NCBI GenBank assembly: GCA_964187785.1
Contig: OZ076409.1
Coordinates: 25,174,001 to 25,238,000, forward strand
Direction: 5' to 3'
Source: Amphiscolops sp. MND2022
Taxonomy: Eukaryota
DNA length: 64,000 nucleotides
Shown: positions 4,336-64,000 of the stretch, piece after piece
Position numbering within the stretch: position 1 is the first letter of the stretch
Layout: every line of letters begins with the position of its first letter
Notes under the pieces: model-generated
Database searches by the model: none
Seen by the model: the letters and a program-made list of their open reading frames with translations, nothing else
Told to the model about the DNA's origin: nothing
Made by a program: the position numbers and the translations under genes

Positions 4336-4587
4336 CCCAGCGTTTGACATCTTGAATATCTTGCCGAGATCTTAGGAAAATCTTGCATTCTTGAATATCT
4401 TGGGAAGATCTTAGGTTTCATCTTGGATATCTTGAAAAGATCTTGGATTCTATCTTGGATTTCTTCGAAGATCTTGCCAGAGCTTGCAAGATCTTGAAAG
4501 ATCATGCAAGATCTTTGCAAGATCATGGAAGATCTGGAAAGAGCTTGGCAAGATCTTGGGAAGATATTCGAGATGTCGAACGCTGGG
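4336..4587. mobile_element. CACTA/EnSpm-like MITE with AAGATCTT internal repeats
   Basis: ~27-bp TIR CCCAGCGTTYGACATCTYGAATATCTT; AA on both flanks; interior built from AAGATCTTG motifs. Confidence 0.65.
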
Positions 4588-19700: not shown

Positions 19701-22700
19701 TGTTTTTGCCAAAGTGTAATTCCGAGACTGGTTTTACTAGCGTCTGTTGTTACCATGTTAACTTTGTCTTTTGCATAATTTGCTAAACATGGTTTTTCGG
19801 TCAGCATTTGTTTTATTTGATTAAAATCGTTTTTTTGTTCTTCTCCCCAAATCCATGGTTCATTCTTTTTCAGTAACTTTCTCAGTCTGTCCGTCATTTC
19901 CGATAGTTTCGGTAAGATCTTTGCCGGATTTTGTATTGTGCCGAGGAATGATTTCAGTTCTTTTGTATTATTCGGTGACTTCAATTTTTGTATCGCTTCA
20001 ACTTTCTCCTCGTTTGGTTTTATTCTGGTTTCATCAATTTCATGTCCCAACCATTTTGTTTGTTTTTGGAAAAATTCAGAATTTCTTTTGCTCGCCCGGT
20101 ATCCGGCTTTTTCGAGTTTAAATAGAACGTCAAAAAGTTTTTTCTCGTGTTCTTGTTCACTTCCGCGTGTTACTACTACAATGTCATCTAGCCATGCCGG
20201 TGTGCTGTATTCCAGTGTTTGGTCTATTTTCTCCTGGAAAATTGTAGGGATGTCAACAAGTCTGTAAAACCCTATTTAAATCTATAATATCCGCTAAATT
20301 TTGCTCCGGTAATTGCAAATAGACATTGCCGGCTCGTTTCTTCGGATAATTTCAATTGTCCGTATGCATAATCTAGGTCATTTTTTGAGATGAATAGTTG
20401 TAATGTTCGGTCTCGTGTAATTTCTACCAAAATCTGGTTTAACAGTTCTCCCATATTCGGCATGTGTGGTCTCCGATTAATGCAGCTGTCGTTTAGTTTC
20501 CGGGAGTCCAGTGCTATTTTTACTGATTTGTCGTTCGTTACCGTTATTACTACCGGTGATACAAAACAGTATTCATCCACGTTATTTACTTTCTCCAGGT
20601 GTCCGGCTTTTATTAGCTTTTCAAGTTCTCGTCCTACACTTCTTGTAGGAGTAACGGGATCGGTTTTGCTTTGTGTTTCACCGGTTAATGTCCAGGTTTC
20701 AGTTGTATATTTCTTACGGTATCTTTTATTGTCCGGTTGTAAAAAAAATTATTCCGGAAACTTGGTAAATACTCTCTCCTTTTCTGATTGGTGGTTTCGG
20801 CCAAAAATGCTCAATAAGAGTGTTATGTCCGGTCTTTCGGTGATTAGTATTTCCATTTTTTGTTTGTTGTTTTCGTATTCTATGTTTACCGGTATATTCC
20901 CCCGGAATTTTTGATCTTGTTTACGTCTTGGTATCGGTTTGTTATTTTCTGTATTCCGGTCTTCTTCATGATTTGTTCGTCTAGTGGCATTATGGTCACC
21001 GGTGATCCGGTATCAATGATGAATTCCTTTGGTGTTCCCTTTATCTTTATTTTTGCTGTATAGTGCTTCTGTTGTTCTACAAGGATCTTTATTTCTTCTA
21101 TGTGGTATATACTTTCGTCGGATTCACTCATCGATTCGGTTAATACTCAGCGTGTTCGGTTAATATGTTAATGACGTATTCTTCATCGTATTTGTTTTCT
21201 GTCGGTGCTCCCCTTACCGGATTTCTGCTGAGATAGTCGGTGAATTTCAAATTACTGCCGGCGATATGTTGAACTGCAATATCAAAATGCGCCAACCGGT
21301 CTAACCATCTAGTTTATCTTGCACTGTTTTGATGGTTGCTTCGGTTCCGTTTTATTAGGGGTTCTAGTGCTTGGTGATCCGTGTATAGGTATACCTTCTT
21401 TCCGTATAGATAAAATCGGAATTTTTCCAATCCCCAAACTACTGCTAATAATTCGAGTTCGCCAATAGAGTAGTTCTTTTCGGTGTCGTTTAGATATCTA
21501 CTACCGAATGCGATTGGTTTCATTTCCCCGTCGTCTTGTTTTTGCCAAAGTGTAATTCCGAGACCGGTTTTACTAGCGTCTGTTGTTACCATGTTATCTT
21601 TGTCTTTTGCATAATGTGCTAAACATGGTTTTTCGGTCAGCATCTGTTTTATTTGATTAAAATCGTTTTCTTGTTCTTCTCCCCAAATCCATGGTTCATT
21701 CTTTTTCAGTAACTTTCTCAGTCTGTCCGTCATTTCCGATAGTTTCGGTAAGAATTTTGCTGGAAATTGTATTGTGCCGAGGAATGATTTCAGTTCTTTT
21801 GTATTTATCGGTGACTTCAATTTTTGTATCGCTTCAACTTTCTCCTCGTTTGGTTTTATTCCGGTTTCATCAATTTCATGTCCCAACCATTTTGTTTGTT
21901 TTTGGAAAAATCCTAATTTTCTTTTGCTCGCCCGGTATCCGGCTTTTTCGAGTTTAAATAGAACGTCAAAAAGTTTTTTCTCGTGTTCTTGTTCACTTCC
22001 GCGTGTTACTACTACAATGTCATCTAGCCATGCCGGTGTGCTGTATTCCAGTGTTCGGTCTATTTTCTCCTGGAAATTTGTAGGGATGTCAGCGAGTCCG
22101 TAAAACCTTTTTTTAAATCTATAATATCCGCTAATTTTTGCTCCGGTAATTGCAAATACACATTGCCGGCTCGTTTCCTCGGATAATTTCTTTGTCCGTA
22201 TGCATAATCTAGGTCATTTTTTGAGATGAATAGTTGTAATGTTCGGTCTCGTGTAATTTCTACCAAAATCTGGTTTAACAGTTCTCCCATATTCGGCATA
22301 TGTGGTCTCCGATTAATGCAGCTGTCATTTAGTTTCCGGGAGTCCAGTGCTATTTTTACTGATTTGTCGTTCGTTACCGTTATTACTACCGGTGATACAA
22401 AACAGGATTCATCCACGTTATTTACTTTCTCCAGGTGTCCGGCTTTTATTAGTTTTTCAAGTTCTCGTCCTACACTTCTTGTAGGTGTAACGGGATCGGT
22501 CTTGCTTTGTGTTTCACCGGTTAATATCCAGGTTTCAGTTGTATATTTCTTTCGGTATCTTTTATTGTCCGGTTGTAAAAAATTATTCCGAAAACTTGGT
22601 AATTACTCTCTCCTTTCCTGATTGGTGCTTTCGGCCAATTGTATTCTGCCGATTGTCAGCTTGAATTTTTTCATCCAGTCCATGCCCAATAAGAGTGTTA

Positions 22701-24998
22701 TGTCCGGTCTTTCGGTGATTAGTATTTCCATTTTTTGTTTGTTGTTTTCGCATTCTATGTTTACCGGTATATTCCCCCGGAATTTTCGTTCTTGTTTACG
22801 TCTTGGTATCGGTTTGTTATTTTCTGTATTTCGGTCTTCATGATTTGTTCGTCTAGTGGCATTATGGTCACCGGTGATCCGGTATCAATGATGAATTCCT
22901 TTGGTGTTCCCTTTATCTTTATTTTTGCTGTATAGTGCTTCTGTTGTTCTACAATGATCTTTATTTCTTCTATGTGGTATATACTTTCGTCGGATTCACT
23001 CATCGATTCGTTCGGTTCTGTTCTTCTTCGGTAAGTTTTCTCACTGTTCGGTTGTTCTTTGTTCTATGTTTGTATGCCCGTGCGTATGTCCTTTCTTTCC
23101 GCAGTTGTTGCAGTTTGATTCTAGTGCTGGGCATTTGTGTATTGGACTCGAATTTGGTGCGTTGCAAAATCTGCATGGTCGGTTTCCCGCTGTTCTCGTT
23201 TTCGGTCTGGTTCCGAATTTCTCCATTTTCTGTATTGGATCTTCTTTAATTATTTGTTTTTCTTTTGTCGTGATTAATGCCTCTGGTATTGTGTTTTTCT
23301 TGTTTTTCTTTTCATAAGTCGGTCTCGTGTAATTTCTACCAAAATCTGGTTTAACAGTTCTCCCATATTCGGCATATGTGGTCTCCGATTAATGCAGCTG
23401 TCATTTAGTTTCCGGGAGTCCAGTGCTATTTTTACTGATTTGTCGTTCGTTACCGTTATTACTACCGGTGATACAAAACAGGATTCATCCACGTTATTTA
23501 CTTTCTCCAGGTGTCCGGCTTTTATTAGCTTTTCAAGTTCTCGTCCTACACTTCTTGTAGGTGTAACGGGATCGGTCTTGCTTTGTGTTTCACCGGTTAA
23601 TGTCCAGGTTTCAGTTGTATATTTCTTTCGGTATCTTTTATTGTCCGGTTGTAAAAAAATTATTCCGGAAACTTGGTAATTACTCTCTCCTTTTCTGATT
23701 GGTGGTTTCGGCCAATTGTATTCTACCGATTGTCAGCTTGAATCTTTTAATCCAGTCCATGCCCAATAAGAGTGTTATGTCCGGTCTTTCGGTGATTAGT
23801 ATTTCCATTTTTTGTTTGTTGTTTCCGTATTCTATGTTTACCGGTATATTCCCCCGGAATTTTCGTTCTTGTTTACGTCTTGGTATCGGTTTGTTATTTT
23901 CTGTATTTCGGTCTTCTTCATGATTTGTTCGTCTAGTGGCATTATGGTCACCGGTGATCAGGTATCAATGATGAATTCCTTTGGTGTTCCCTTTATCTTT
24001 ATTTTTGCTGTATAGTGCTTCTGTTGTTCTACAATGATCTTTATTTCTTCTATGTGGTATATACTTTCGTCGGATTCACTCATCGATTCGTTCGGTTCTG
24101 TTCTTCTTCGGTAAGTTTTCTCACTGTTCGGTTGTTCTTTGTTCTATGTTTGCATGCCCGTGCGTAGTGTCCTTTCTTTCCGCAGTTGTTGCAGTTTGAT
24201 TCTAGTGCTGGGCATTTGTGTATTGGACTCGAATTTGGTGCGTTGCAAAATCTGCATGGTCGGTTTCCCGCTGTTCTCGTTTTCGGTCTGGTTCCGAATT
24301 TCTCCATTCTCTGTATTGGTTCTTCTTTAATTATTTGTTTTTCTTTTGTCGTGATTAATGCCTCTGGTATTGTGTTTTTCTTGTTTTTCTTTTCATAAGT
24401 ATTTTGTTTGATCATTTCAATTGTTTTCTTCATCTCTAGTGTCTTTTCTTTCATTAGTTTATTCCGTAACTTCTTGTCGGTAATCGCTGACATGTATTTG
24501 GATATTAGTAGTTCTTCGGCTGAAATGGTACCGAAATTACATTCTTTCTCTGTTTCGATCAGTCGTCTCCAGAATTCTTTGGGTGTTTCATTTCCCGATT
24601 GCTTTGCCCAAAAAAATCTCTTCTGTTATGGTATGTATTTCGTTTTGGGAGGTAGTGTTCGGTATATAACCGAATTAGATCTTTGATTTTTATGCTATCC
24701 GGTTCCGTTTTGTATTTGGCCCGGGTTATCTGGTACAGTGCTTCCGGTCCCACTCCCCAGATGAAGTCATCTTGGATTCTTGCATCTTTTTTGGTGGTCC
24801 ATCCGGTTTCTGTGATTTCTTCCCCTTTTACTAATGGTGTAATGTCGATTTTATGTTCCCGTTTAGTAAACTGCCGGAATCTCTCCAACCATTGTCTCGG
24901 GGTAAATATTGGGTTTCCGTCTGATGCCTTTGCTTCTAGGTTCGGTACAATATTCTTTTCTGCCATAATTCCGATTGAAATTTTTGGTTTGTTTTAAA

Positions 24999-47100: not shown

Positions 47101-50100
47101 TCATTCCAAATAATTCATGAATTATTAGAATTATTCATATAATTGTTTTTTAACATGATACAAAAATTCAACAACACTGTTAGATTCATATGATAGCTTG
47201 ATTTGAACCAATGCTGAGACGAGATTTGATAGTACTAACGTTTGCATACAAAGAAAGTCTCCCACTCGTTGACTTCAAAGAACTTGTAATGGTTCTCAAT
47301 GCATCTGTCACATTTGGTACCAGTGACATTCGCTCTGCAGGGGGAACAGGAGCCTGAATCATCACATTGCACAGAACGTGAATCTTCCGAAACCACCCTA
47401 TTTGCCACGCCTTGGTTGTCGCATCCACAGTCGAGACAGCCGGCAAAGCTACGTGTTACAAAGTAGCCATCATTTGGAGATTTGAAGGTGGAATTGAAGC
47501 CGTAAGACCCAGAGGCGCACTGGTCACACTTTCTACCACTCACATTGGGTAAGCAAGGACACTGACCCGTGGTTGCGTCACAGACGGAAGAAGATGAGCC
47601 AACAGAACTGCATTCGCATGGAAAACACCCTAAAACCATCAAGAAATGAGAGGTTAGAAACATTCGTCATAGATTGAATAATAACTAATACATGTAATAC
47701 AGTGGAATCCGGCTAATTCGTATCGCTAGGGACCGAACAAAGTAGTACGAATAGTGAGAAATACGAATTAACCGGATGCTATTACTTCGGTCGTCACGAA
47801 ATGGGGGCTCAGATGCGCGCGAATTAAACGAAGATCCGAATTATCCGGATACAACTTCACCGGAGTTGACTGTATACTAATATTAATATACTAATATTTA
47901 TATAGGGGAGCGGGAATAACGTCTAAATACAGAACGAGAATAACGTCTAAAAATAAATCATTTTTCGGGAACAACGTCTAAAGTTTTAGACGTTATTCCA
48001 CTTTTTAGACGTTATTCCTGTTTCAAAAATTGGACTTTCGGAAAGTTAAAACATCTTTTTCTGAATAATTTTTCACACCAAACGGCTTACTTTGAAACAA
48101 TAATGTTTAACCTAAACAAAAAATATATCATTGAATTCTATACAATCTACAGAATTCGATGAATTTCAAATTTTCTGAAAAATATTTCAAAAACCTGTCC
48201 AAAACTGGGAAAATAGTGTCCTTTCTGCGCCGGAGATTTCACTTGATGTGCCAATCAGAATTGAAAGTGAGAGCAAATAGGGGGACGATTTTTTAATCAC
48301 AATGTATTTATACGGGACCGGGAATAGTATCTAAAAGAATAGTATCTGAAACAGTATGATTGGTTAGAACAGCCTCATCCATGTCAATTTGAGTGACTAG
48401 CAAACCCGTCTGCCCGAGGGGCAGAAGTCGCTTTTAGAATTGGCAGTCAAATCTTCACTATTTTTCGTATCCTGATGATGTTTTTTCTTTCATTTAAACG
48501 ATGTTGTGAATTATCATTAAAGAAACCTGATCAACTAATTTCGATGAAAAGCAATATTAAGGAATGGATTCAATTAATTCTGAGTAAACCACATTGTCAA
48601 TGAGAATCTTTTTATCGGTAATATTTTCATCAGAACAATCGGCTGAATAAATTTTAACAGCACTGCAGTCTCCAACCCTCGACATTGCTACGTACAACTG
48701 GCCGTGAGAAAACATCTGTTGTGGTAAGTAGATGCCTACTTTCGACAGAGTTTGCCCTTGAGATTTGTTAGGTGTGATTCCAAATGCTGGGCGTACAGGG
48801 AATTGTTTTCTTTTCATTGTAAATGGATACACAGTGTCTGAGGGTGACATGACTATTCTTGGTATGAAAAGCTTCTTTCCGGCGTGAGTTCCGGTTGCAA
48901 TGATAGCCTCAATTATGTTGGATCCTGCTTCCAAAACAATGTACCTCGTGCCATTACAATGTCCGTTGACGGCGTCAAAGTTCCTTAGTAACATTATGCA
49001 CGACCCTTTCTTCAGTTTCAATTCATGTGGTGGAAATCCAGAAGGAGTTAATTTGTTTAAAAACTCGGTAGGGTACCTAAACAATCAAAATTGGTAACAC
49101 ATTAGTGGTTCTTATTGAAAGCTGCGACTTGAAAATTTAGCTTAGAAAGTATTGAACCTGTGAGCATTCTCTGCAACTGTATCGCAACTTTTGTAAATCT
49201 TCTCCTTTCCTGGAAAACGCTCCATCATCATTTCGTTAACATTATCGACTGCGTTATTTGTAGGCGATATGATCGCTCTATTGGCCAACCAATCGTAGTT
49301 CATGTAATTCTGGGTCAGATCCTCGAAAACAAAGTCACACAAACCGGTCAAGGTATTGTTTCGAAGGAAAAACTTCGGTGGTAACCTGACTTTGAACTCT
49401 CCCTCTTCTTCAACGTTAAGCTTTCCACTTCCCAAGTGGTCCAGAAATTGACTGAAATTCGAAGAATCAGAAGTTTCTCCACAATTGATTATTCTCATGT
49501 TTTGACTGAGATGCATTGTTGTAACGCTGGGCCAGAGAAAAGAATTCTTGAGAGTTGCAGCAACTATTTGAGCGCGGCTCCCATGACGAATTACAGGCAA
49601 AATTTGCCTCCAATCACCTCCCAAAAGCACTGTCATTCCACCAAACGGGTAGTTGTTCCTCCTAACGTCTTGCAGTGAGCGATCTATACACTCAAAGATG
49701 TTTCTGTGACCCATTGAAATTTCATCGATAATCAAAAGGGAGGCTTCTTGTAGTAAAACGCCAGTGGCATCACGTCGACTGAAACCACATGTCGATTCGT
49801 CAGTCAAAGTCAACGGAACTTTCATTCTGGAATGAAGAGTCCTTCCTGAATCCAATAACGTAGATGCAATACCTGATAGAGCAGTCGCTAGTGCAATTTT
49901 TTTCTCCGATCTTACTTTTGCAAGAATCAAGTTCATTAGGTAGGTTTTACCTGTACCACCGGATGCATTGAGACAAAAAATTTTCCCAGAATTGTTCATG
50001 ACTGACTGAATCACAGCCTCGTAAACTACTTTTTGCTGGTCGTTCAAGGTGCATTCCTTGTAGAACACGTCTCTTTCCAATTTCAGTATGTCGTATTGCA

Positions 50101-53100
50101 GTTCTTCTTGGATTGTTTTGGGCTGCATGCTGGCTGTTGTGACCTCTGTAGGCATGGGTAACCCGAAGTCTTTTTGCAGACACAGATCTTCACGATCCAA
50201 TCTGTCTTTTATAAACTGTAGAATCTCATTTCTGATGTTTGCATTCACACCATCCACGCCGTCTCGTTTCATCAGATCCCAAGCCATTGCCAATTCCCAT
50301 TTTTTCCAGAAAGATACCGGTTCCGGAGGTGAAGCATAAAGGAGAATGGCGCAAAAAAATCCCGTAACTGGCATCCAAACCGAATGTTGGCGGCTTCTTG
50401 CATTGCTCGATCGGCTTCTCCATCGTCATCAAGCAGTCCCAATTGTCTGCAGGCAGCCTCAAAACTTTCACATAACTTTCCCGATACTGTCTTCAGGTCA
50501 TTGAAACCTTGTGGACCTCGAATGTGATGTAAAAGCATTCTGAGATGGTACAGTTCAGACTGATGTCTACTCAAAGAAACTACTGGTATCCTGCCAAGTG
50601 TGTCTGCCTTGAAGTAGCCTTCTCCAGCTGCATTTCCTCGCTTTCGTGGCGACCATTTTCTGTTTTTCTTATCCCACACGAAAAAGTTTGGAATTTCATG
50701 ATAAAGTAACGTCTTTGCAAAAGTGTCACATGCATTCAAATTGAAGAAAGCTTCCAGCTTGGTTATCGGTAGTCCAGTGGAGATAACATTGTCGAGTTGA
50801 TTTTCTCGGAAGATTACCGTTTGATCTCCAGGCAAGTGGCATGGAAGTTTTTCAATCGCAGGTTTCCTTGAGTGTATTGGAAAATCGTAGATCCGCCAAA
50901 ATGCTTCACTGGCTGAGATGTATCTAGCATTGAGATAGAGTTCAATCTCGTCGTTCGTTTGACAATCTGTCTCACTTTCCATCCTCATATTCAGAATAAT
51001 CCGGTCACTTCCTTTCAGTATGTATTTGTAGAGGTATTTAACAGCTGCAACCGAGTTGACAATTTCACAATTGATGTGTGCTTGAAATTTCATCGATAGA
51101 AAAGGATTATACGGTACCACCCATGAGTTGTCCAGAGTGATCAGCTGGTTCTTAACTTTTTTCTCGAATACTCGGCCTCCATCTTCAGGGGCTCTTCGTC
51201 TATATTCAGGAAAACCGTCTTTTGTGAAAAGTGTTTCTTGTTTGAATTTTTTAGGAAAATGTTTGCTACAATGTCTCTGACTTCCACTGCCTTCCATACA
51301 GGACGCATTTTCATTGAATTTTCCACATGGTCCATGCAGCATTGACTCAACAATGATCTGATGAAGTTGCGGATTTTCCATTCTGTCTGGTATCTCTGCC
51401 GAAACGACCTTGTTCACGTCTGCGGCCGATCGAGGTTTGTATTTGTCCTCCATTACCAGTAGAATGTGTGCATGAGTCAGACCCCGCTTTTGCCACTCAA
51501 TGGTTGCTGAATGGGCTACCACTTTACCCAAAATATCATTTTTCAGCAGATCCTCCATCAAGGCATCAAATTTGGCTTTGAAAACTCTGGCGCAAATGTC
51601 GGGTCTGTCTCGGGTATCCTCGCCTGGATTTAACAGTTCTTTTATTTCTGGCCAATTCGGATTTGTCGTGAAGGTTATGAAATAATCGGGCTTCCCAAAG
51701 TGGCGAACTACGCACATACTGTTTTGAAATTGTTCATTGTAAAAACGGGGCGAGCCGTAAATAGTTGGAGGTAAAATAACCTTTCTCCCTGCATTTTGCT
51801 CGTCACCATTAGCGATAGCGTCCATTAGCCCCTGATATTTGTCAGCTCTTATGTTGGATTGGTGTTGTCGTGCCCAAATGAGACGGTTTCCTTCTATCTT
51901 TGCCCAGCAGTCGACTGCATATTGTTGCATAAGTCGACGACTTTTCATCAACATATTGGAATTTGAAACCCTTACTTGTAATCGATATGCATAGAAGTCT
52001 GTGGCACTGAGTGTTCTGCCGTTTTTCTGTTTCAACCCTATTTCGAATCCGTCCTCGCCGTTAGGGAATAAAAGAACATAGAAAAGTGGATCATACGATC
52101 TGTGAACTGGACTGATTCTTTTCAGCTCACCACCTCTTCCATGGACTATAACATCGAGATTGTTTTCTGATTGTTGACCTGGTATGATGGCGGCAACTTC
52201 CGAACAATTGGGGAGATTATATTGTCGGCAATGTTCCGTGCTCGGCTTGAATTTCTTACTCGCTGTCAACAAAAGGTCGTATTCTCTGATAACATTCAAT
52301 TCTATTGCCGCTTTGAAGCTCTTGATATAGGGGTTGCAAGAATGCAACGCTTTCTGCAACCTATCAACAATTGACTTTTTTAAATTCTGCATCACCTTCA
52401 GACGGTTCTCCAGTTCACAGGCGCTATCATAAAAATATAGTTGACCGAATTTTGGTGAGTCACCTGGCAACGGCAGCAGAGAACCAATGCGGTGGTAATC
52501 TTTTCCCTGTACCTTGAATACAGCTTTATTGTTGGTTATTCCGTCATCTGGTTCATTACATCCCATGGATGCTAAGGCCATAAGGTTGTTGTAGGCCACA
52601 ATATTTTTCAAAAAATCATTGTTTTCAAAAAGATCCTTTATGGAATGTGGATATGTACTAAGTGGCGGGAGGTCGACGTTCCCTTTCCGGCAACAGAATG
52701 ATTCAAGTTCACACGACCATCTTTTCGAGTCACAGTACGAACAAATAGTGTTTGCTTCCCCTATGTTGTGGATCTGAACGTGCAGCTCCGCGAAATCGGA
52801 GGAATCGCAATGGCAGGCTATTCCAAGTGTCTTGGAGCGTTTCTCCAGCACTCGATTTTGTCTTCTCGAACGAATGCATTGTAATCGACACTCTCTGCCC
52901 TCTGATGTCTCTTCTTCGTAATGACGCTTTCTATCTTCCCGTTCCATTTGTCGTCTTGAATCAAGTCTCTGACTTCGAAGACTTTCTTCCTCAACGCTTC
53001 GCTGCAAAGCTTTTCGCGTCCGTCGTATTACGATCATCAGGCTCTCCTTTTTGCGAATTCGCTCAAGTGTTCGACTCAACTGCGAACCTGAAGACATTTT

Positions 53101-56100
53101 ACTCTAAAATAGAAAAGTCGTTTGTACAATCATTCACTCTCTATGGCTCCCATCACACTGGAATGTCATCTGGAAACGAACGTAACAGAGAAGCCGCTAA
53201 AACTTGGACATAACCATCGTTAGATCAAATTTCAGGATAATTATAGCTTGGATAGATCAGTGATCTGGAAAATCCGGCATAGATCTTGAATCGATCAGTG
53301 ATCTCAAAGGTCCGACCAGGATTATTAAATGATCAGCGATCTCGAAGATCCGTCCAAGATCTGTAACAGATCAGTGATCCGTCCAAGATCTTGGATAGAT
53401 CAGACATCTCGATTCTCCGACCAGGATCATGAAAAGATCAGTGATCTCGAAGATCTGTCCAAGATCTGTGACAGATCAGTGATCCGTCCAAGATCTGGGA
53501 TAGATCAATGATCTCCAAGATCCGTCCAATATCTTGGATAGATCAGTGATCTCGAAGATCAGTCCAAGATCTGGGACAGATCAGTGATCTCGAAGATCCG
53601 TCCAAGATCTGGGAGAGATCAGTGATCCGTCTAAGATCTTGCATAGATCAGTGATCTCAAAGATCCGTCCAAGAACTTGGATGGATCAGTGATCTCGAAG
53701 ATCCGTCCAAGATCTAGGACACATTAGGATCCGTCTAAGATCTTGGATAGATCAGTGATCTCGAAGATCCCTTCAAGATCTTGGATAGATCAGTGATCTC
53801 GAAGATCCCTTCAAGATCTTGGATAGATCAGTGATCTCGAAGATCCGACCTGGATCATGAAAAGATCGGCGATCTCGAAGATCCGTCCAAGATCTTGGCT
53901 AGATCAGTGATCCCTCCAAGATCTTGGATAGATCAGTGATCTCGAAGATCGGTCCAAGATCTTGGAAAGATCAGTAATCTCGAATATCCGACTCAGATCT
54001 TGGATAGATCAGTGATCGCGAAGATCCGACCAAGATCAAGAAATGATCAGTGATCTCGAAGATCCGACCAGGATCATGAAAAGATCAGCGATATCGAAGA
54101 TCCATCCAAGATTTGTGACAGATCAGTGATCCGTCCAAGATCTTGGATAGATCAATGATCTCGAAGATCTCTCCAAGATCTCGGATAGATCAGTGATCTC
54201 GAAGACCAGTCCAAGATCTGGGACAGATCCATGATCTCGAAGATCCGACCAGGATCATGAAAAGGTCAACAATCTCGAAGATCCGACCAGGATCATGAAA
54301 AGATCAGTGATCCGTCTAAGATCTTGGATAGGTCAGTGATCTCGAAGATCCGGCAAAAGATCTTGAAAAGATCAGTGATCTCGAAGATCCATCCAAGATC
54401 TTGGATAGATCAGTGATCTCCAAGATCTGACCAGGATCATGCAAAGATCAATGATCTCGAAGATCCGTCCAAGATCTGGGACACATCAGTGATCCGTCTG
54501 AGATCTTGGATAGATCAGTGATTTCGAAGATCCGGCAAAGATCTTGAATAGATAAGTGATCTCGAAGATCCATCCACGATCTTGGATAGATCAGTGATCT
54601 CGAAGATCCATCCACGATCTTGGATAGATCAGTGATCTCGAAGATCCATCCAAGATCTTGGATAGATCAGTGATCTCGAAGATCCAACCAGGATCATGAA
54701 AAGATCAGCGATCTCGAAGATCCGTCCAAGATCTTGGATAGATCAGTGATCTCGAAGATTGGTCCAAGATCTTGGATAGATCAGTAATCTCGAATATCCC
54801 ATCAAGATCTTGGATTGATCAGTGATCTCGAAGATCCGTCTTGGATCTTGGATAGATCAGTGATCTCGAAGATCCGGCAAAGATCTTGAATAGATAAGTG
54901 ATCTCGAAGATCCATCCAAGATCCTGGATAGATCAGTGATATCGAAGATCCGTCCAAGATCTTGGATAGATCAGTGATCTCGAAGATCCATCCAAGATCT
55001 TGGATAGATCAGTGATCTCGAAAATCCGTCCAAGATCTTGGATAGATCAATGATCTCGAAGATCCATTCAAGATCTTGGATGGATCAGTGATCTCGAAGA
55101 TCGGTCCAAGATCTTGGATAGATCAGCAATCTCGAATATCCCAACAAGATCTTGGATAGATCAGTAATCTCGAAGATCCGTCCAAGATCTGGGACAGATC
55201 AGTGATCCGTCCAATATCTTGGATAGATCAGTGATCTCGAAGATCCCTCCAAGATCTTGGATAGATCAGTGATCTCGAAGATCCGTCCAAGATCTCTGAC
55301 AGATCAGTGATCCGTCCAAGATCTTGGATAGATCAATGATCTCGAAGATCCCTCCAAGATCTTGGATGGATCAGTGATCTCGAAGATCCGTCCAAGATCT
55401 GGGACAGATCAGTGATCCGTCTTAGATCTTGGATAGATCAGTGATCTCGAAGATCCGGCAGAGATCTTGAATAGATCAGTGATTTCGAAGATCCATCCAA
55501 GGTCTTGGATAGATCAGTGATATCGAAGATCGGTCCAAGATCTTGGATAGATCAGTGATCTCGAAAATCCGACCAGGATCATGAAAAGATCAGCTATCTC
55601 GAAGATCTGTCCAAGATCTTGGATAGAACAGTGATCTCGAAGATCGGTCCAAGATCTTGGATAGATCAGTAATCTCGAATATCCGACCAAGATCTTGGAT
55701 AGATCAGTGATCTCGAAGATCCGTCCAAGATCTGGGATAGATCAGTGATCTCGAAGATCCGACCAAGATCTGGGATAGATCAGTGATCTCGAAGATCCGT
55801 CCAAGATCTGGGAGAGATCAGTGATCCGTCTAAGATCTTGGATAGATCAGTGATCTCGAAGATCCAGCAAAGATCTTGAATAGATCAGTGATCTCGAAGA
55901 TCCATCCAAGATCTGGGATAGATCAGTGAAATCGAAGATCCGTCCAAGATCTTGAATGGTTCAGTGATCTTGAAGATCCGGACAGAATCATGAAGGGATC
56001 AGCGATCTCGAAGATCCATCCGAGAGCTTGGATGAATCATTGGTTTCGAAGATTCATCTAACATCTTAGATAGAACAAAAATCTCGAAGATCCGTCCAAG

Positions 56101-59100
56101 ATCTTGGATAGATCAAAGATACAGAAGATCCATCCAAGTTCTTGGATAGATCAGTGATCTCGAAGAACCGACCAGCATCATGAACAGAGCAGCAATCTCG
56201 AAGATCCGTCCGAGATCTTGGATAGATCATTGATTTCGAAAATCCATTTAAGATCTTGGATAGATTAGTGATCTCAACGATCCGTCCAAAATCTCAGTTA
56301 GATCAGTGATACAGAAGCGCTGTAGATCAGTGATACAGAAGCGGTGCAATATTTTTGTTTCTTTGCCTACTCTATAAAGTTCTCAATCAAAAATTTTCCC
56401 ACTATATAATTTTTACCTTGCCTGCTATGTGCATGCCGCATTTTTTCAACCATGAAAAATTTAACAAAGAAGCAACATAGGCAATATTATCGAATAGAAA
56501 CAATGAAATATATGACTGAAACAAAGAATAGTATACAGCAATCTAACAAACCACTAAATTTTCTTCCTGAACATAATATGAAACGACTTTATTCAACAAT
56601 TTTCGTCCGCGACCTGCTTTTCGACCGGTTCCGCGGTGCTTTGACCTTCCTCGTTGGCCGCGCCTTGATTCTCAACTCTTGTAAACGTCTCAGCTTCATC
56701 CGTTGGAAATGTTGGGATGGTTGGATTTTCCTCTGTGGAACTGGTTATTTCGCATGTCTCTACTGCAGTTTCTTCTTTACTGGCATTAACGTCATCTTCA
56801 TCGCTCAAGTCGATAAGTATCACAGTTTCCTATAAAAAGCAACTGCAGTGAAAACTTTTTATCAAAAAACAGTTTTTGACTTCACAACAGAGGACTTGTG
56901 AGAAGAATAGAATATTACTTTACTCACTGAAATTTTGTCCTTCGAACAGTTGTTCGATATTGCCTCTTTCTTCATTTCTTTTGCTTTTTTGGGAATCTTT
57001 GAGCAGCTGACAGAATGGGTCACGTTTCCTTTTCTTTTCAGGCCTTTTTCAGCCGGATTTTGCCACGCAATTGGCAGTTTTGCATTGTTCCTCTCAGTCA
57101 GTTTGGCAATCTCCTTCTGGACAATTTCGTGGACTTCTGAGCTCGTGATGTTGGAGCCAGCCCTTTTGATCAGTGCTAGGGTTCGGTTTGTTGCCATTCG
57201 CATTTGGGTGAAAGCTTGCTGCGATTTCTGAAGATCCTGAATTAGTACTTGTACAGAACCCACCAATTCTTCTCGCGGAATTCCTGATAGATCTGGAATG
57301 GTCACTCCGGCTTCCCGACGGAATCTTTCTATCGGTCCGTCCACAGCATCTTGTGCTCCCGAAATTGCCTTCAGAATGTCGTTTCGCGCACCGTCCACAG
57401 TTTCTTTTAATTTAGACATTGTGTTATCCGAAAAGTTTTTCAGTTTCAGCTATGATTTCAGTTCAAGCTGCCAGTGAAGTTTCAATTTTTTGTCGACTGC
57501 TTTTGGCGGTTTTTTTAATGGAATGAAAAGAGAAGATTTTCAACGATTGATCACGTGTCAAGCATGCTGCAAAGTTGGCATTTTTTGATTCGTTGAAACT
57601 ATTTGGCAACGTGGTTTTTTTGAACGAAAGTTTTCTCTTTTTGATCGAAAATCATTCCTCGTTCATTAATTCTTCAATTAATCAATTCATAAATTCAGTC
57701 TTTCATTGAAATTATTTTATTAATTTTTTTCATCTTTATTTATTATTATAGTTCATTTTAATACCAATTCACTAATATCATTCAAAAATAATAAAAGAAA
57801 CGAAGTTGAAAAATGACTGAAATTTAATAAAAACTGTTCGCCGACAGAATTGAACTCGCGCTGTTGGAGTTCGTGGCGTACTCGTTACCTCTAGGCTACG
57901 CTGCCTTGAATATTAATCTTGTATCGTAGATTTTAATTCAACCAAGAATTCAATTTTGAATGCTCGTATATTTTGATTCAATCGTGAATTTAATTCAATC
58001 GTGAATTCAATTGTGAATGCACTCGTATATTTTAATTCAATCGTGGATTTAATTCAATCGTGAATACACTCGTGAATTTCATCATATTTGTCGTGCTGTA
58101 TAATATAGTAGTAAGCTGTTCGGCAACTATGACGCCATCACCGAGTCTCAATTCGTCTTCTGATTGGCTGCTTGAATGACGTCATAAAACTTTCACTTCA
58201 AGCCGAGACACGGAACACTATCTCCATTTTATATAGGATTGGATTGGTTTAGATATTATTCCTTTAGATCCTATTGTTTTCACATTTTATACTTTCCCCA
58301 CCTAATGTGGGGCATATGCTGTGTATGCACGCTCGCCCTCACCGTCGCAAAGACCAGCTCCCACTACGATCGCTTCGTGATCTCCGTTTCCGCTAGGTCT
58401 TCATTCCTGTTCGACCTCGCTTAGCAAGATGGGTACATAAGCGGCCCCGAGGGCCGCGGGGCACTAGAGGAAAACAGGAAATATCAGAGGCACGTTTTAT
58501 ACTTTAAAAAACTTCGATATTATTCCCGAAATCGTTTTAGATTTCATTCCTTTTTGGTTATTCCTGTTCTTCAGGCGTATCATGATGTTTTTTTTTTGAT
58601 AATTTGAACGTTTTTTTTTCTGATTTTAAACACTTTCTGATTTTCGACGTTATTCCACTTTTTAGACGTTGTTATTCTCTTAGACGTTATTCCCGAATTT
58701 TTAGACGTTATATCTTTTTTTTTCAGTTCAGATGTTATTCCTTTAGACGTTATTCCCGGTGAAACTTTAGACGTTATTCCCGCTCCTAATTTATATATAC
58801 TAATTTTACGATATATTTCCAATATACTAATATTAATATACGTATAGACTAATATTAATAGTATAATAAGATGCCCGTTAAACACCGCGATATTTTCCGC
58901 CCTGAACTAATTTAGCAGTAAACATTCAAAAATTGAACTTTATATTTTTCGATAATAAACAAGACGGGAACGTCTGAAGTCGGCGCCATATCCAAGGCTC
59001 AAAAAGCGCAGTTTTTAAAATTGTAGAAGGGAGGACTCTTCGGGCTTTTCGAAAATCCAGTTTGTTGCAAAATATCAAAAAAATGAAGGAGCGACCTTTC

Positions 59101-62100
59101 GGAGACATTGAAAACTTTCGAAAAAATTTTGAAATTTTCCAAAAAAAAAACGAAAAATGAGAATTTTTAACAGTCTCATAGTGCCGAAAAATGTAAAAGG
59201 GGGCCCTTTAGGCTTTTTCAACATCCATGCAGGTGCAAATCACCAAAAAAAGAAGGGGGCCCTTTGAAGACTTTAAAAAACTTCGAAAAAAGTCTCACAA
59301 AGCCGAAAAAGGACGGGGAAAGTCTCATAGCGCCGAAAAATTGGAAGGGGGACCCTTCTGGGTTTTGCATTTCAAGGTAGAGGCCTTTGGATGCGTTCAA
59401 AATCAAGTACTGAGTACTTTTGGTAAAAGTGAATCCTTCACAAAAAGTGGTACATACGCGATGAGTGAAAAGTCTGACGAAAAAAAAAGAAAACTAGCCA
59501 CTGTAATAGTCGAGCTCTTTTCACTAGAAAAGCGCCGACTAAAAAACAATGCCTTTTTGAAAATCATTTTCATAAATATATATGCTACAAACCATCAAAT
59601 AATTAAACAAATAAGCTAGAGCTTGCTCAGAATTTCGAAAACTAACCTTTATATTTCTGGCAAATTTTCCGTTCACATCACGTATGCCATCGACCTTATT
59701 TTTTCATGTTGAATTCTGTGGAACAAGCTCAATTATCTTTTGAGTATAAGATTTGTGGTAAAAAAACGCCGGCTGGGAGGTCAATTTTTCTTACCCAGAT
59801 AAAATACAAGAGAGTAGAGGTGTACCGGACAACAAGTCCGGTCCGGTATCCGGCCGGGTTTCAGGAAAATGTCCTGTCCGGTATCCGGCCGGACTTTTTA
59901 CAATGTCCGGCCGGATATTATCTTAAAATCATAATCTAAAATAATCGGAATATCTAACTTAGAAAAAGTGTATGTGCATCGAAAAATTGAATTTGTGACT
60001 GTGAACCAAAATTCACTAAATTATGGCGGAGGGAAAATAGTTTTTCACCGCTCTGTGGTAAAAGCCTGCTCCGTCTTTCGTAATCCTTATTGCCCCATTC
60101 TGGAAACAGCCCTTCATCGCTTACAATTGAGGATAATATACGGTCCGGCCGGTATCCGGCTCCAATCAGTCCTGTCCGGTTGTCCGGCCGGACGAAAATT
60201 TTCCTGTCCGGTGCACCTCTACAAGAGAGGAAAATAACTCGCGTAGTAGTAATAGAGAACAAAATTCTTTACTGAAACAAAATAATTATTTGCCGTAACC
60301 GGAATGACTTTCATACAGTTTTGCTTACATATTAGCAATATTTTGATTTTTAACACGCAATATCAAAATAAAAGCCACCAAATTGAGAGTACATTTGCAT
60401 TTGAGAATAGCGGACCGGATTGATATTTTACGAAGAAAATAATTTAACCTTTTCCAGAATCGAAGCCATAGTACCCTTCAGCACAAGCATCACACGCCAG
60501 GCCAACAACAAAGTCTTTGCAGATACAGGCTCCAGTGGAAGGACTGCAGCTTTGCAGGGGAGGCGAGTAAGACCTCAGCGTGCCCTCTTTGGAACACTGG
60601 CATCGAGTGCACGTCGAGGGATCCGAAAGAGCACTTCCATAATGATCGTCCAGACAACCCTCACATTGGCGCCCTTCTGTGTTGTTAAGACACGACAGGC
60701 ATTCTCCAGTGAGTCTAAACAGCCAACACAAATAGTTACTCAACGGGTTTAATCAAAAAGAAAGATTTTTCATTAGGTAGGTATTTAAATTACTAACTGG
60801 TTGCAAATATTTCCGTTTATTTCAGCACCGTTTCCATTGCAGTTGCATTCGACACATTTTCCGTTTCTCCGGAAAAAGTTTTTGGAGCAATCTTGGCATC
60901 TGTCACCTAAATTAACGAGCACAAATTCAATCTGATTGGCAACATTCTCATGGCACACAAAAATTTGATCGTATAATTCGAGCTTGATGGTAAAAGCAAA
61001 CAAAAGGTTTCAATCATGTAACAGCACAACCTCAAAACGCTTTGATGGAGAAAACGTCAAATATATGAAGCGGGGGACTGAATATTTACCAGTGTAGCCA
61101 TCAGGACATTCCAAACATTGGATGGCCCCATTGAGATTCTCTTTACATTTTCCAGGGCGAGACAGGGACGTGTTTGAATCGATGGTGAACCCACAAGGAC
61201 ATATTTGGCAGGCGTTGGGCGATTCATCCTTTGAAGGGTTCCCGTAATACCCATCAGCACACTCGGAGCAATCCCTCCCCTGTGTATTGTGGTTGCATTT
61301 ACAGTCACCTATAGCCAAATCGATGAAAGGATTATTCATTATCCGCAGAAAAGATGTAACTACCTTTTGATACATACAAACTGCGAAATATAACCTGTGG
61401 ACTCTTCACAATCTGTCCCATGCTTGTTACAACCACAGGGGACGCAAGCAGATAAACTTCCCAAGGTAGGGTCTAGTCGATAAAAGCCTGAAAAGAAAAT
61501 ATTTTGCTGATAACACTTTCATGTTGATTCGATTCACCAAATATTGGAAAGAGATTTACCAGGGGCACAAGTTTCACAAGAGGAGCCCAGGTAGCCTTTG
61601 GGGCAGAAACATTTTTCAGCTGTGAATGCCCGTCCTGAACTGAAATCCGCAGAGACGCTCTTTTCTGCTATCTCCAAGGCCACATTTTTAATGTCACATG
61701 CGACCGCTGAAAACCAATCGATTCTCATTTTCGAATTTTGAACATTTAGTTTGCACCAATTTCAATGCTTAAAATTTTCACTATAATATATATGGTAATG
61801 AAATAGACACTTCCAGGCAAAAATCTAGCCAACATGTGGTTGTTGCATTCTGGGTACTTTTCAAATTTGCAATAATGTTTTTACAATTCTACTACGAATT
61901 TTGCATTTGTGGAAAAAATAGAATAGAAACTAACCACCATAGCTTCCTCTGATTAGGATACGTTGTACGCCCAAAAGAGTGGACTGGAAGTTTATGGAGG
62001 TTGTCGAAGTATCCCATCCTGCTTTCTCATCCAATCTAAAACCAAGAGAATGAAAATGAATCATTTCATGGCATCCGAGTTCAAATAGTCGACATATGAA

Positions 62101-64000
62101 AAATAAAAATGAGCAAGAGATCCTTTAAAACTGTTGTAGATCAACCACGGAAGTAGAAACAAGCTACTATTGTTCGGCGCCCTCTTAAGACGCAAAGAGA
62201 GCTAAGTATTCTAACTATGCTCATGCTTGTGTTTTTGGAGATAATCTCACAGTTCCGAAAATATTCAAATGGAAGACCCTTTGGAGCCATCAAATACTTT
62301 TTCCTAGCTGAAAATGAAAAATAACAAAAGCGGCCATTTAGAGGAGTGGGAAAACCACAAAGTCACGTAATGTTCAAAATCCAAAGAGGGCCTTTTGGTC
62401 TTTAAGCTTTTCAATTCAGACAAAAAAGAAAAATTAAAGGGCCTTTGTTAGATCGTACGCGTACTGTAAAATTTTTCGGTCAGTTCGAGATTGAAAGTGA
62501 AAACGACGAACAGCCACTATAGATGATCCATACTTCAGATAACGCGGACTAGAAATACAAATTCTGTTGAAGTTGGCGAGACCTGTGGTGTGAAGAAACA
62601 ATCAGCCTCTGTAAGAATGGGAAACTTTTCTTTATATAAAAAACGAAGACCGAAATGATAACGTGCATCTTTTTTAATGGTTGACATTGCCTTTGGTATG
62701 GAATATTCTTCAAAATTATACCGAGAGAAAAATTACATACATAACATATATCACCAAACATTGTCATTGAGCATGCATTGAACTCAGCTGTGGGTTTCCG
62801 AATGCCACTAGGTTTGATGGAAAGGTTAAATACATAACATTGTACTCATGATAGATTTTGGTTTACCTGAAGGAGTACGAGTTCCACTGATGAGCCTTGG
62901 GTGCTGGGTTGTTGTGCCAATTCAAACCAGCTGTTATCCACTTCAGTTCACGTCCAATTTTGCCTTCGATGATCAAATCTCGAGAGGTGAAAAAGCTCTC
63001 TTGAATGTCACCCACTGGTTTGAGTTCAAAACTCAGCTGCAAACCATAACTCATGATTCGGTTCCCTGCGAACTGTTCGGGTAACTGAAAGTAGATAGGG
63101 CTATAATTAGGACCAATTTTACAGTTGCCTCCATTTTTGGAAGGGGAGGAATCCAAACTCATGTGGCGTTCACTTGCTGATCCTTCCAGAATAAGGTTGC
63201 ACTCCGATCCAGTCAAGTCTGTGGCCTTCCATCCAGCTATATCAAAGCCGTATTGCCTTCCTGCAAAAATATTATCAATCAATCGATCAAGACAATCAAT
63301 CAAAATAGCCCAAAAAGAGTCAAACTTCAATATAGCTGAAAATCAACGGGACTTTTAACTGATCCACAGAAAATCAGGTTCAATGAGTTCAATCCAGCTT
63401 TGTTTAATTTTCGATATTTATTTTTTACTGAACATTTTGTTAGTTATTCGGTACAAAACTGGAAACTAAAATTTACAAGTTAATCATTATTAATCAGAAA
63501 AGTAGCGCAATAGGTAACTTACAAAGTAGTTTTTAGTGACAACTTTTTTGGATTGTTGGTATAAAATTGGCCATTTCCTGCCGAGCGAGCAATTTCCCTA
63601 ATTGACAAAGAGCTTTTACGGACATTATTACTGAAAACTCGGTGAATAGTGACAATTTAGACTTTTTGAAGGTAAATATCAAATGATTCAGTGAATTGCA
63701 CAGTCTGGAGATGAGATCAACCGGGTTCAATCTGAGTTTCCATGGAATTTTTCTCTAAATACAGGGAAGAGAGTCAAACTAACCTATTCCAGAAAAATCA
63801 GAAAGCATCTTTGTGACCCTGTAAGGATCGGTAGATGGTATACAGTCGAATGTGTGATTGGAACAAAAGCAAGCCTTGCAACCGAACTCATCATCGGCAC
63901 GGAGATCGAAGTGACCAGGAATACATTCAGAACATGTTTGGCCCTTCACATTCTCCTTGCACGGACATTGGCCAGTGGAATAATCACAGGAATTAACACC
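29009..64000 (-). CDS. LAMC1: Laminin gamma chain (gamma-1/LanB2-like), 3' portion; 18 exons, ~1225 aa in window; 5' end beyond window
   Basis: Spliced translation follows the gamma-1 domain order: LE ([17 protein letters not shown]), L4 ([25 protein letters not shown]), LE repeats, CDSCYDFV, ~580-aa coiled coil, terminal Cys. All 17 introns are GT-AG with matching phases; exon total 3678 nt = 1226 codons. The symbol denotes family likeness, not proven orthology. Confidence 0.92.
29344..29727. mobile_element. Mutator-like MITE
   Basis: TIR ..GCGGGACAAAACAGCCGATT; 9-bp TSD CGTTGAAAG. Confidence 0.8.
30754..31252. mobile_element. Mutator-like MITE, inverted relative to the 29344 copy, with 27-bp tandem repeats
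   Basis: 9-bp TSD CAAATGACC; about five copies of GTTTTGAAAATCGGCTGTTTTGTCYC at 31097-31247. Confidence 0.78.
31537..31800 (-). CDS. laminin gamma exon (coiled coil)
   Basis: [30 protein letters not shown]; donor gttggt. Confidence 0.85.
32024..32486. mobile_element. hAT-like MITE
   Basis: 17-bp TIR CAGTGATTTGACGTGTA; 8-bp TSD TGTCACAT/GGTCACAT. Confidence 0.8.
34090..34620 (+). mobile_element. Possible non-autonomous Helitron-like fragment
   Basis: Ends with a small hairpin CGGT-CGAAA-ACCG, then CTAG|T; 5' end not identified. Confidence 0.3.
34755..34892 (-). CDS. laminin gamma exon (coiled coil)
   Basis: [46 protein letters not shown]; phase 0/0. Confidence 0.75.
35817..36016 (-). CDS. 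laminin gamma exon (coiled coil)
   Basis: [28 protein letters not shown]; donor gtcagt. Confidence 0.8.
36417..37655 (-). mobile_element. Two DINE-1/Helentron-like elements in head-to-tail tandem
   Basis: Junction GCGCCGACTAAAAAT|AACAAGCCGAGAACGG at ~37115; both sets of termini present. Confidence 0.75.
37789..38650. repeat. Unclassified dispersed repeat; related copies at ~27925-28250, 42580-42680, 43420-43830, 44080-44360
   Basis: Shared blocks such as CGTAGACGAAGTTTCGCATTCGCATTTGAATGCAGGCGAA and CCATATGGCACGTCGC. Confidence 0.75.
38652..39295 (-). mobile_element. 5'-truncated LINE 3' end
   Basis: [18 protein letters not shown] post-RT peptide; (TTA)n tail at 38652-38666. Confidence 0.8.
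39314..39428 (-). CDS. laminin gamma exon (coiled coil)
   Basis: [38 protein letters not shown]; phases 0/1 are needed to join the flanking exons. Confidence 0.75.
39551..39673 (-). CDS. laminin gamma exon (coiled coil)
   Basis: [23 protein letters not shown]; weak donor gtctgt chosen by phase. Confidence 0.75.
40384..40549 (-). CDS. laminin gamma exon (coiled coil)
   Basis: [38 protein letters not shown]; gtttcag acceptor, gttagt donor; not in ORF track. Confidence 0.8.
40675..41198. mobile_element. hAT-like MITE nested in a Helentron-like element (~40553-41287), itself containing another repeat fragment
   Basis: TIR TAGTGTTCAAWACTGAAA; TSD GATTAGTG/GATCAGTG; TTTCAG subterminal repeats. 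Confidence 0.78.
41483..41746 (-). mobile_element. DINE-1/Helentron-like element, internally deleted
   Basis: Both termini present; near-identical to the ends of 58957-59546. Confidence 0.7.
42205..42482 (-). CDS. laminin gamma exon (coiled coil)
   Basis: [30 protein letters not shown]; phase-2 donor gttggt fits next exon. Confidence 0.82.
42738..43191 (-). mobile_element. DINE-1/Helentron-like element
   Basis: Family termini present. Confidence 0.72.
44505..44984 (-). mobile_element. DINE-1/Helentron-like element
   Basis: Family termini present. Confidence 0.72.
45284..45642 (-). CDS. laminin gamma exon (start of coiled coil)
   Basis: [23 protein letters not shown], matching the gamma-1 CPACYRLV junction; donor gttagt. 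Confidence 0.88.
47240..47629 (-). CDS. laminin gamma exon (last LE repeats)
   Basis: [42 protein letters not shown]; donor gttagt. Confidence 0.9.
47700..47872. mobile_element. pogo/Tigger-like MITE
   Basis: TA|CAGTGGAATCCGG..CCGGAGTTGACTG|TA. Confidence 0.7.
48557..53097 (-). CDS. Helitron RepHel transposase (~1490 aa): Zn finger, HUH Rep, PIF1-family helicase; one frameshift (~50353) and one intron (49077-49157)
   Basis: [78 protein letters not shown]. Confidence 0.95.
53240..56340. repeat. GATC-rich tandem array (38-bp unit with 29-bp variant), ~3.1 kb
   Basis: Consensus AAGATCTTGGATAGATCAGTGATCTCGAAGATCCGTCC; roughly 80-85 units; edges degenerate. Confidence 0.95.
56593..57419 (-). 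CDS. Helitron accessory orphan gene, 2 exons (57419-56928, 56829-56593), 242 aa
   Basis: Donor TCA|gtgagt and acceptor ttatag|GAA join two ORFs in frame; AATAAA overlaps the stop; helical N-terminus, LKRK basic patch, [11 protein letters not shown], acidic tail. Confidence 0.75.
57829..57905 (-). ncRNA. tRNA-like Pol III-type unit inside the Helitron
   Basis: GGCAGCG TAGCCTAGAGG (A box), GAGTTCAATTC (B box), then TTTTT; acceptor stem does not pair, so not a true tRNA. Confidence 0.5.
57931..58080. repeat. Short degenerate tandem repeat (AATTCAATCGTGAAT)
   Basis: Several direct copies visible. Confidence 0.7.
58129..58185 (-). promoter_or_regulatory. Putative Helitron 5' promoter (CRE and CCAAT box)
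   Basis: ATGACGTCAT at 58176-58185, CAGCCAATCAG at 58160-58170, CRE-like TGACGCCA at 58130. Confidence 0.45.
58269..58467 (+). mobile_element. Short Helitron/Helentron-like element
   Basis: 5' hairpin CCCCAC-CTAAT-GTGGGG; 3' hairpin GCGGCCC-CGA-GGGCCGC then CTAG, followed by A rather than T. Confidence 0.5.
58957..59546 (-). mobile_element. DINE-1/Helentron-like element
   Basis: Family termini present. Confidence 0.72.
59815..60221. mobile_element. hAT-like MITE, CCGG-rich
   Basis: TIR TAGAGGTGYACCGGACA; perfect 8-bp TSD CAAGAGAG. Confidence 0.88.
60449..60714 (-). CDS. laminin gamma exon (LE)
   Basis: [42 protein letters not shown]; donor gttaaa. Confidence 0.9.
60798..60906 (-). CDS. 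laminin gamma exon (LE)
   Basis: [36 protein letters not shown]; donor gttagt. Confidence 0.88.
61090..61308 (-). CDS. laminin gamma exon (LE)
   Basis: [40 protein letters not shown]; donor gtaaat. Confidence 0.9.
61395..61487 (-). CDS. laminin gamma exon (LE)
   Basis: [32 protein letters not shown]; ttttcag acceptor, gttata donor. Confidence 0.88.
61560..61706 (-). CDS. laminin gamma exon (end of L4, LE)
   Basis: [33 protein letters not shown]; donor gtaaat. Confidence 0.9.
61935..62035 (-). CDS. laminin gamma exon (L4)
   Basis: [35 protein letters not shown]/gttagt boundaries; phases 2/1 fit neighbours. Confidence 0.88.
62867..63260 (-). CDS. laminin gamma exon (L4 / domain IV)
   Basis: ttgcag acceptor; [40 protein letters not shown]; donor gtaaac. 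Confidence 0.9.
63784..64000 (-). CDS. laminin gamma exon (LE repeats, start of L4), runs off window
   Basis: [53 protein letters not shown]..; donor gttagt; not in ORF track. Confidence 0.9.

Follow-up and report, generated by a model that had tools for sequence, protein, structure and literature searches.

A Helitron of Amphiscolops sp. with a selected accessory gene and a motif array: a possible helper against SUMO-dependent silencing

Introduction

Does a gene that travels inside a transposon, ahead of the gene that moves it, work for the element, or is it a passenger? This question is raised by a 9842-bp Helitron found on contig OZ076409.1 of Amphiscolops sp. MND2022, within a stretch of 64,000 nucleotides (referred to here as the window) in which it occupies positions 58238..48397 of the minus strand. 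Plants, with their VANC proteins, provide the best-documented cases of anti-silencing proteins encoded by transposable elements. Animal Helitrons, for their part, are described as having one open reading frame (ORF), which according to PMC4067079 is typical of the autonomous ones. In contrast to such canonical animal Helitrons, a second gene family is fixed in the clade discussed here and swaps as a cassette, and the standard layout of the clade is, in this order, the 5' end, the accessory gene, a motif array and RepHel. A preliminary description of the window had proposed that the accessory gene and the array are not passive cargo, and that they might form a protein-plus-array system analogous to that of the Arabidopsis VANDAL elements. 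The first of these notions was upheld; the second, in its strict form, was not.

The best explanation that we can offer, and one that we hold tentatively, is that this is a young Helitron whose accessory protein is likely a SUMO-binding anti-silencing helper, with an array that probably works as a regulatory element in its own right and is read by host factors. Confidence in its parts falls, in our estimation, from the gene serving the element, through the binding of SUMO by the protein's tail and the anti-silencing purpose, to the reading of the array by host factors.

The accessory gene and its maintenance

The accessory gene of the window element is encoded by two exons on the minus strand. 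Exon 1 (56928..57419, 164 codons) specifies a conserved, predicted helical domain, a PP..W/F..P motif and a basic patch, while exon 2 (56593..56829) specifies an acidic tail with a motif resembling a SUMO-interacting motif (SIM), and an AATAAA overlaps its stop codon. The removal of a predicted phase-0 intron of 98 nt (56830..56927, GTGAGT..TAG) yields a protein of 242 aa, other splice choices giving 222-261 aa. The 242-aa model, already put forward in the preliminary description, is supported by the related genes: those of type D have a phase-0 intron at the matching position, and the intron-less types B, C and E read into the same motif.

When exon 1 was compared with the 1.07-Gb genome, 62 matches were obtained at E up to 1. 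A set of 50 loci with a gene match was examined, a few weaker matches lying outside it, and a Helitron 5' end, an array or RepHel was present in 45 of them, the other five being broken or short fragments. The genes constitute a family of at least five types (A-E, the window gene being of type A) that are 33-50% identical over the first 130 residues, the corresponding figure for the Rep domains being about 70% or more. Between types, the proportion of differing synonymous sites (pS) is 0.65-0.88 and that of nonsynonymous sites (pN) is 0.33-0.49, and second codon positions are 53-70% identical versus 26-42% for third positions. Because synonymous sites are saturated, pN is lower than pS and second positions are more alike than third ones, the gene is, as judged from these alignments, under long-term purifying selection between types. 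Within type B, pN is also lower than pS.

The origin of the gene was sought in the host and in databases. No host donor gene was found in four protein searches of the genome, nor among 1.84 billion representatives, where the 19 protein matches were all cargo-like, the longest having 222 aa. Two further database searches yielded 11 ENA matches each, again all cargo-like, and most database homologs match types present in this genome. P0019 represents a sixth accessory type that is not in this genome (best 38%), and scans of viral and JGI metagenome contigs revealed no relative; the family as covered here ranges over one genome plus one unplaced protein. None of the three outcomes that had been named beforehand as contrary to a role for the gene was encountered: sister copies do carry the gene and the array, the ORF shows purifying selection between types, and no single-copy host gene was found. 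It is very likely, in our view, that the accessory gene serves the element.

A SIM-like motif in the accessory protein

The AlphaFold2 model of exon 1 predicts helices at residues 2-37, 49-89 and 93-112 (block pLDDT 70-86, pTM 0.42) and no strands, and residues 126-164, directly before the SIM-like motif, have pLDDT under 50. The net charge of the domain is +1 to +6, and the domain has conserved basic residues. No informative match was found in Pfam (best 0.2 for the window protein) or among PDB sequences (best E 0.47), the best values in the ESM Atlas (0.76 and 0.79) were at chance level, and a fold search against 48,161 chains returned generic helical hairpins, with a best Z of 9.8 that is below the threshold noted for helical models. 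Neither Pfam, the structure model nor the fold search led to the recognition of a DNA-binding domain; Pfam gave no match to DUF1985 or DUF287 in any of the 11 aligned members, and no match to an OB-fold domain, the model consisting of three helices without strands.

Although the tails are poorly alignable, a hydrophobic-acidic motif follows the basic patch at the same place in types A, B, C and D and in P0008, a copy of type E. It spans 11 residues in the window protein (167-177) and reads VINLVSDNEE in B, VVVIDLTED in C, VIIDVISDED in D and IVDISSD in P0008. SUMO-interacting motifs have a VIDLT core with acidic flanks (PMC3901395), and the VIDLT core of type C is that of the PIAS1 SIM described in the same source. 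The combination of a hydrophobic core, an acidic flank and a disordered region is found in A, B, C, D and P0008 and, loosely, in P0019, whose VIVVDLSNED was found after the motif had been noticed. A SUMO1-like gene, identified by eye, is present in the genome. From this pattern we consider it probable that the tail of the accessory protein binds SUMO.

The array and its relation to the gene

The tandem array (53247..56310, minus strand) had been described as a 3.1-kb GATC satellite, and this matches its dimensions: it comprises about 83 copies of a 38-bp unit, about 3.06 kb in all, with a 14-bp palindrome and four GATC per unit at start-to-start spacings of 7/11/11/9. A free-standing genomic satellite was rejected, since all 49 exact genomic matches to the A-type 26-mer lie inside six copies of the window element's family (family A). 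The GATC motif looks constrained when units are compared: between the A and B units, GATC columns are identical at 16 of 16 positions versus 13 of 22 for the remainder; conservation within array A is 95% for the GATC columns and 87% for the rest (p 0.0005 by permutation, the columns not being independent); and the excess conservation within arrays A, B and C has p values of 0.0005-0.05. Clusters of GATC reach 8-31 per 300 bp, compared to at most 6 in 114 background tiles, and the phased pattern had no matches in viral contigs. The main E and X arrays use TGACTCA, which is the AP-1 site; the E array is built of a 134-bp unit and contains 73 TGACTCA in 2297 bp, all on one strand.

The crucial comparison concerns families B and C. 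These share 98.9% identity across 5363 bp covering RepHel and the 3' end, and 98.6% across the first 144 bp, and they have one array type, yet their accessory proteins are only 39-40% identical. One 38-mer is common to families B, C and D, while D and E, which are sister proteins (97/97 support), accompany different arrays. In two decayed elements, the B protein also stands upstream of an A-like array, behind which lies a TGACTCA array. These alignments showed that gene type and array type are uncoupled and that genes swap between families. VANC proteins, as portrayed in PMC5735166, evolve together with their motifs. The strict VANC-like co-divergence that had been anticipated for the window element fails on two grounds, namely the array shared by the dissimilar B and C proteins and the different arrays of the sister D and E proteins, and no DNA-binding domain is recognisable in the protein. 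Binding of the accessory protein to a GATC motif common to all types is possible.

A tentative mechanism and its competitors

In the explanation that we tentatively prefer, the accessory protein would oligomerise through its predicted helical hairpin, and would enter the nucleus by means of its basic patch, the SIM serving to bind SUMO itself or silencing factors that are SUMOylated. As it would act in trans, it would not depend on a matching DNA site. An analogy for such a helper, with no sequence homology shown, is provided by viral proteins that carry SIMs and antagonise SUMO-based defence. Its purpose would be to counter SUMO-dependent silencing, of the kind seen in the fly piRNA pathway, rather than to help transposition directly; piRNA-guided silencing in flies requires SUMO (10.1101/533091). 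The array would constitute a homotypic cluster of sites for host factors, GATA-type for GATC and AP-1-type for TGACTCA, and would boost RepHel expression through host transcription factors. Host GATA-type factors (ELT-1 and plant GATA factors) are documented to bind GATC (10.1101/2022.05.20.492891, PMC11525189), and the array may be likened to the host-factor sites of the nematode Helitron1_CE, in which HSF-1 sites drive the element's own RepHel mRNA (PMC6927752).

Several observations weigh against this explanation. The SIM pattern was defined after the sequences had been seen, it is broken in the E copy E_C8, and its strict form misses P0019. SIMs also serve in DNA repair and replication, so that a SIM by itself does not point to anti-silencing in particular. 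Among themselves, the young copies of C and D lack the signal of purifying selection, as expected of drift after insertion, and dS (synonymous divergence) is saturated, the ratio of nonsynonymous to synonymous divergence (dN/dS) being given only for A versus E (0.37). As for the array, the excess conservation of GATC falls short of significance in three of them, D, Y_C7 and X_C12 (p 0.07-0.15), and the folds of the arrays are more stable than those of shuffled sequences (z -3.0 to -5.6), so that a structural role is also possible. Finally, a GATC cluster follows the gene within 1.5 kb in 12 of the 17 loci tested, types A-E included, and this fits direct binding by the protein equally well.

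This last observation leads to the first competing explanation, which is that the accessory protein binds the phased GATC directly and opens or protects its own element, in the manner of VANC except that one motif would serve across families where VANC has locks specific to each family. The GATC phase is kept while the spacers change, the A-type matches are confined to family A copies, the basic residues of the domain are conserved, and elements of family D retain the gene and the array without RepHel. Against it stand the lack of co-divergence, the TGACTCA of the main E and X arrays, the failure to recognise a DNA-binding domain, the plain helical hairpin of the model and a domain net charge of only +1 to +6, and we regard direct binding as unlikely.

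A second explanation, about equally unlikely, would make the protein a cofactor of transposition, aiding RepHel as an oligomeric scaffold or as a recruiter of SUMOylated repair or replication factors. In a variant of it, the gene and RepHel may be products of a single transcript that is alternatively spliced and has the array within an intron, the alternative splicing of TnpA and TnpD in En/Spm being an analogy for a one-promoter, two-product element with no sequence homology shown. The gene always lies upstream of RepHel on the same strand, acceptor-like sites closely follow the array in four cases (A, B/C, E and Y_C7), and the exon-1 donor and the pre-RepHel acceptor of family A are both in phase 0, an agreement read by eye that has a one-in-three chance; but no long fused protein exists among the 19 database matches. 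The swaps of the gene on the near-identical RepHel of B and C argue against a tight interface between the two products, and the scanned stretches of a distant family (Y, see below) have no gene match. The role would be the one proposed for RPA in plant Helitrons; the D elements that lack RepHel are similar to the Mothra mother element, which has RPA only (PMC4683698).

Pol III-like units

The tRNA-like unit noted in the preliminary description was confirmed (57829..57905, minus strand). An A box (57898-57888), a B box at tRNA spacing (57857-57847) and a T5 run as terminator are all present in it, this A-box/B-box/T-run pattern being the sole instance in the window and appearing in none of 200 shuffles. 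A true tRNA was rejected, as ARAGORN and Rfam (E up to 1) gave no hit and the unit folds without a paired acceptor stem or cloverleaf. DNA matches to the unit were found only in the seven family A copies, and a scan of the 5' regions of families B-E for the two boxes found no unit. Owing to this absence, the unit is, on present comparisons, not a fixed part of the module but a family-specific addition. A dispersed repeat of ~2.4 kb elsewhere also includes a tRNA-like unit, which agrees with the window unit over roughly its first 20 bases.

Units of this kind are much more numerous in family Y, whose RepHel pieces are 25-48% identical and whose TC-type end is directly followed by arrays of A-box/B-box/T-run units. 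Two 64.5-kb stretches, each of which holds several stacked element pieces, contain 66 and 61 units, all on the RepHel strand (C12:56663500-56718000 and C1:15418000-15472500), and a third copy, without the 5' part, has one unit. The Y and A units have the boxes, the spacing and the T run in common, and their overall identity is 42-56%. No match to the accessory gene was found in the family Y stretches scanned. These arrays represent a second, separate lead. Viral Pol III RNAs and tDNA barriers are analogies for element-borne Pol III units, again with no sequence homology shown.

With these units in mind, a broader explanation can be drawn, in which the Helitrons of this animal use a modular kit against silencing, made of a swappable SUMO-engaging protein that binds the phased GATC arrays of its own element, together with Pol III/TFIIIC units (one in family A, dozens in family Y) acting as chromatin barriers or RNA decoys. 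If true, a rolling-circle element of an animal would have its own equivalent of VANC, working by a different molecular logic; we regard this as unlikely.

Less probable still is that the gene alone is maintained, and that slippage, template switching and SINE capture have produced the array and the tRNA-like unit as neutral by-products. The variation in array length, from about 12 to 282 units across elements, would be in line with this, as would the dispersed repeat that begins like the tRNA-like unit and the internal repeats reported as common in Helitrons (PMC4683698, PMC4067079). On the other hand, in several families the same slot holds an array with unrelated motifs, the GATC phase is conserved, and family Y amplifies its units on one strand only. 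Lastly, passive cargo, that is, a captured host gene fragment without a role for the element, is very improbable and already largely refuted, for although Helitrons often capture gene fragments (PMC12001565) and an intron-rich donor could escape exon-wise searches, the intact types number at least five, predate the present copies by far and are saturated at synonymous sites, and no donor came up in four protein searches of the genome or among the 1.84 billion representatives.

Ends, insertion site and sister copies

The preliminary description had placed the Helitron termini and all the parts in a given order on one strand, and this arrangement was found intact on the minus strand: CRE/CCAAT, A-box/B-box/T-run unit, two-exon ORF, 38-bp array and RepHel. 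The element starts with TC, ends with CTAG and is flanked by A and T. Its 5' terminus (58200..58238) bears the signature TC..TATA..ATGGAG..TGTCTCGG, which is common to families A-D, F and X, and its 3' terminus (48397..48425) consists of a 7-bp GC-rich hairpin that precedes CTAG. A putative promoter at 58163..58184, also noted earlier, is marked by a CRE (TGACGTCA, 58184-58177) and a CCAAT motif (58167-58163); families B and C have a related TTACGTAA at nt 57, and family D has it at nt 116. Between this region and the Pol III-like unit there are 2.7 copies of a short 59-bp repeat (57923..58077, minus strand).

The joined flanks of the window copy match an uninterrupted repeat elsewhere in the genome (92.5% over 307 bp), which indicates that no target duplication took place. 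The insertion site is inside this older repeat, intact copies of which match the joined halves; a target-site preference, considered from the flank matches, was consequently rejected. Family A comprises seven copies that are 98-100% identical. Six have both ends, the C6 copy being a 5' fragment, and insertion between A and T is seen as a 5' A in six of seven copies and a 3' T in six of six. In copy C7, a deletion reaches from exon 1 into the array. When six copies are compared, each of the 84 variable columns is private, which indicates a recent burst from one master. In copy C2, the first 313 bp of the element are tandemly duplicated.

RepHel (48557..53097, minus strand) has the expected domains, Helitron_like_N (PF14214, 4e-59) with HUH and Y2 motifs and a PIF1 helicase (PF05970, 2e-71). 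Its open frame of 1320 codons is present in three of six family A copies, and the RepHel of the sister copy C13 has 1486 aa and the HUH/Y2 motifs. The window copy departs from this in a 1-base deletion in a T run near 50355, which none of the five sisters has and which is either a mutation or an assembly error. A second frameshift suspected near 49100 was rejected, as it corresponds to an 81-nt intron (49157-49077) at a position common to families B and C. Pfam searches with three RepHel ORFs gave no match to a Helentron-type endonuclease after the helicase, where the protein stops.

Two further observations concern the start of RepHel. In sister elements (families C, E and others) it apparently has an extra acidic N-terminal exon, located between the array and RepHel and with repeated S/T-T-hydrophobic-P-Y motifs, which family A is without. 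In the window, an acceptor-like site at 53104-53125, before the RepHel start, is in phase with the exon-1 donor at 56927; a fusion transcript that skips the array is possible, the phase agreement being expected once in three by chance.

Relatives with an altered layout

In one of the family D elements with the accessory gene and array but without RepHel, the 3' end is complete and lies ~5.1 kb from the 5' end. Family F, a deletion derivative of C, is present as five dispersed copies; its accessory gene is interrupted, its array has 12 units and its RepHel is broken, so that it must have been mobilised in trans. At C4:25520000-25539999, five decayed E-type accessory genes stand in tandem, with a ~2.6-kb period, ahead of a RepHel remnant.

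Comparison with known systems

By every feature tested, the window element is a canonical Helitron and not a Helentron, its accessory gene is not RPA and its product is not a VANC member. It shares with Helraiser/Helibat1 and Helitron1_CE the TC/CTAG ends, the 3' hairpin, the A|T target without duplication and a RepHel with HUH/Y2 and PIF1 domains. The plant Helitron RPA genes (PHRPA, Mothra) and the RPA and OTU genes of Helentrons are, from the account in PMC4683698, also accessory genes maintained by elements, with RepHel-less derivatives and tandem-repeat blocks. Unlike these, the protein studied here has no OB fold or protease domain, its model is all-helical, it carries the SIM-like motif and no host homolog was found. 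Helentron accessory ORFs include hypothetical proteins as well (PMC4067079). From the VANDAL/VANC system, found in Mutator-like elements of Arabidopsis, the present one differs in the absence of DUF1985/DUF287 and of protein-motif co-divergence, and in superfamily and kingdom, although by analogy its gene and array may act in a similar spirit.

No description of this arrangement was found in the literature searched, repeat databases (Repbase, Dfam) and supplements being outside the scope and an entry there possible. With its small protein, which is under selection and has a putative SIM that can be mutated, its young open copies and its naturally occurring exchanges of gene relative to array on a near-identical RepHel, the clade makes it directly testable how an animal DNA transposon escapes SUMO-dependent silencing.

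Surroundings of the element in the window

Laminin-like EGF exons lie on both sides of the Helitron and on the same strand (47235-47666 and about 60450-64000, minus). The observed/expected CpG ratio in the window is 1.05, and with CpG not depleted, heavy methylation is not indicated. At 4389-4558 there is a short repeat of another kind, with a AAGATCTTG core, and tracts similar to it flank other loci. Inspection of the ORF list by eye pointed to broken pol pieces like those of LTR retroelements, among them an internal duplication (16894-24625), and to a broken LINE-like endonuclease/reverse transcriptase (12099-15505), both on the minus strand.

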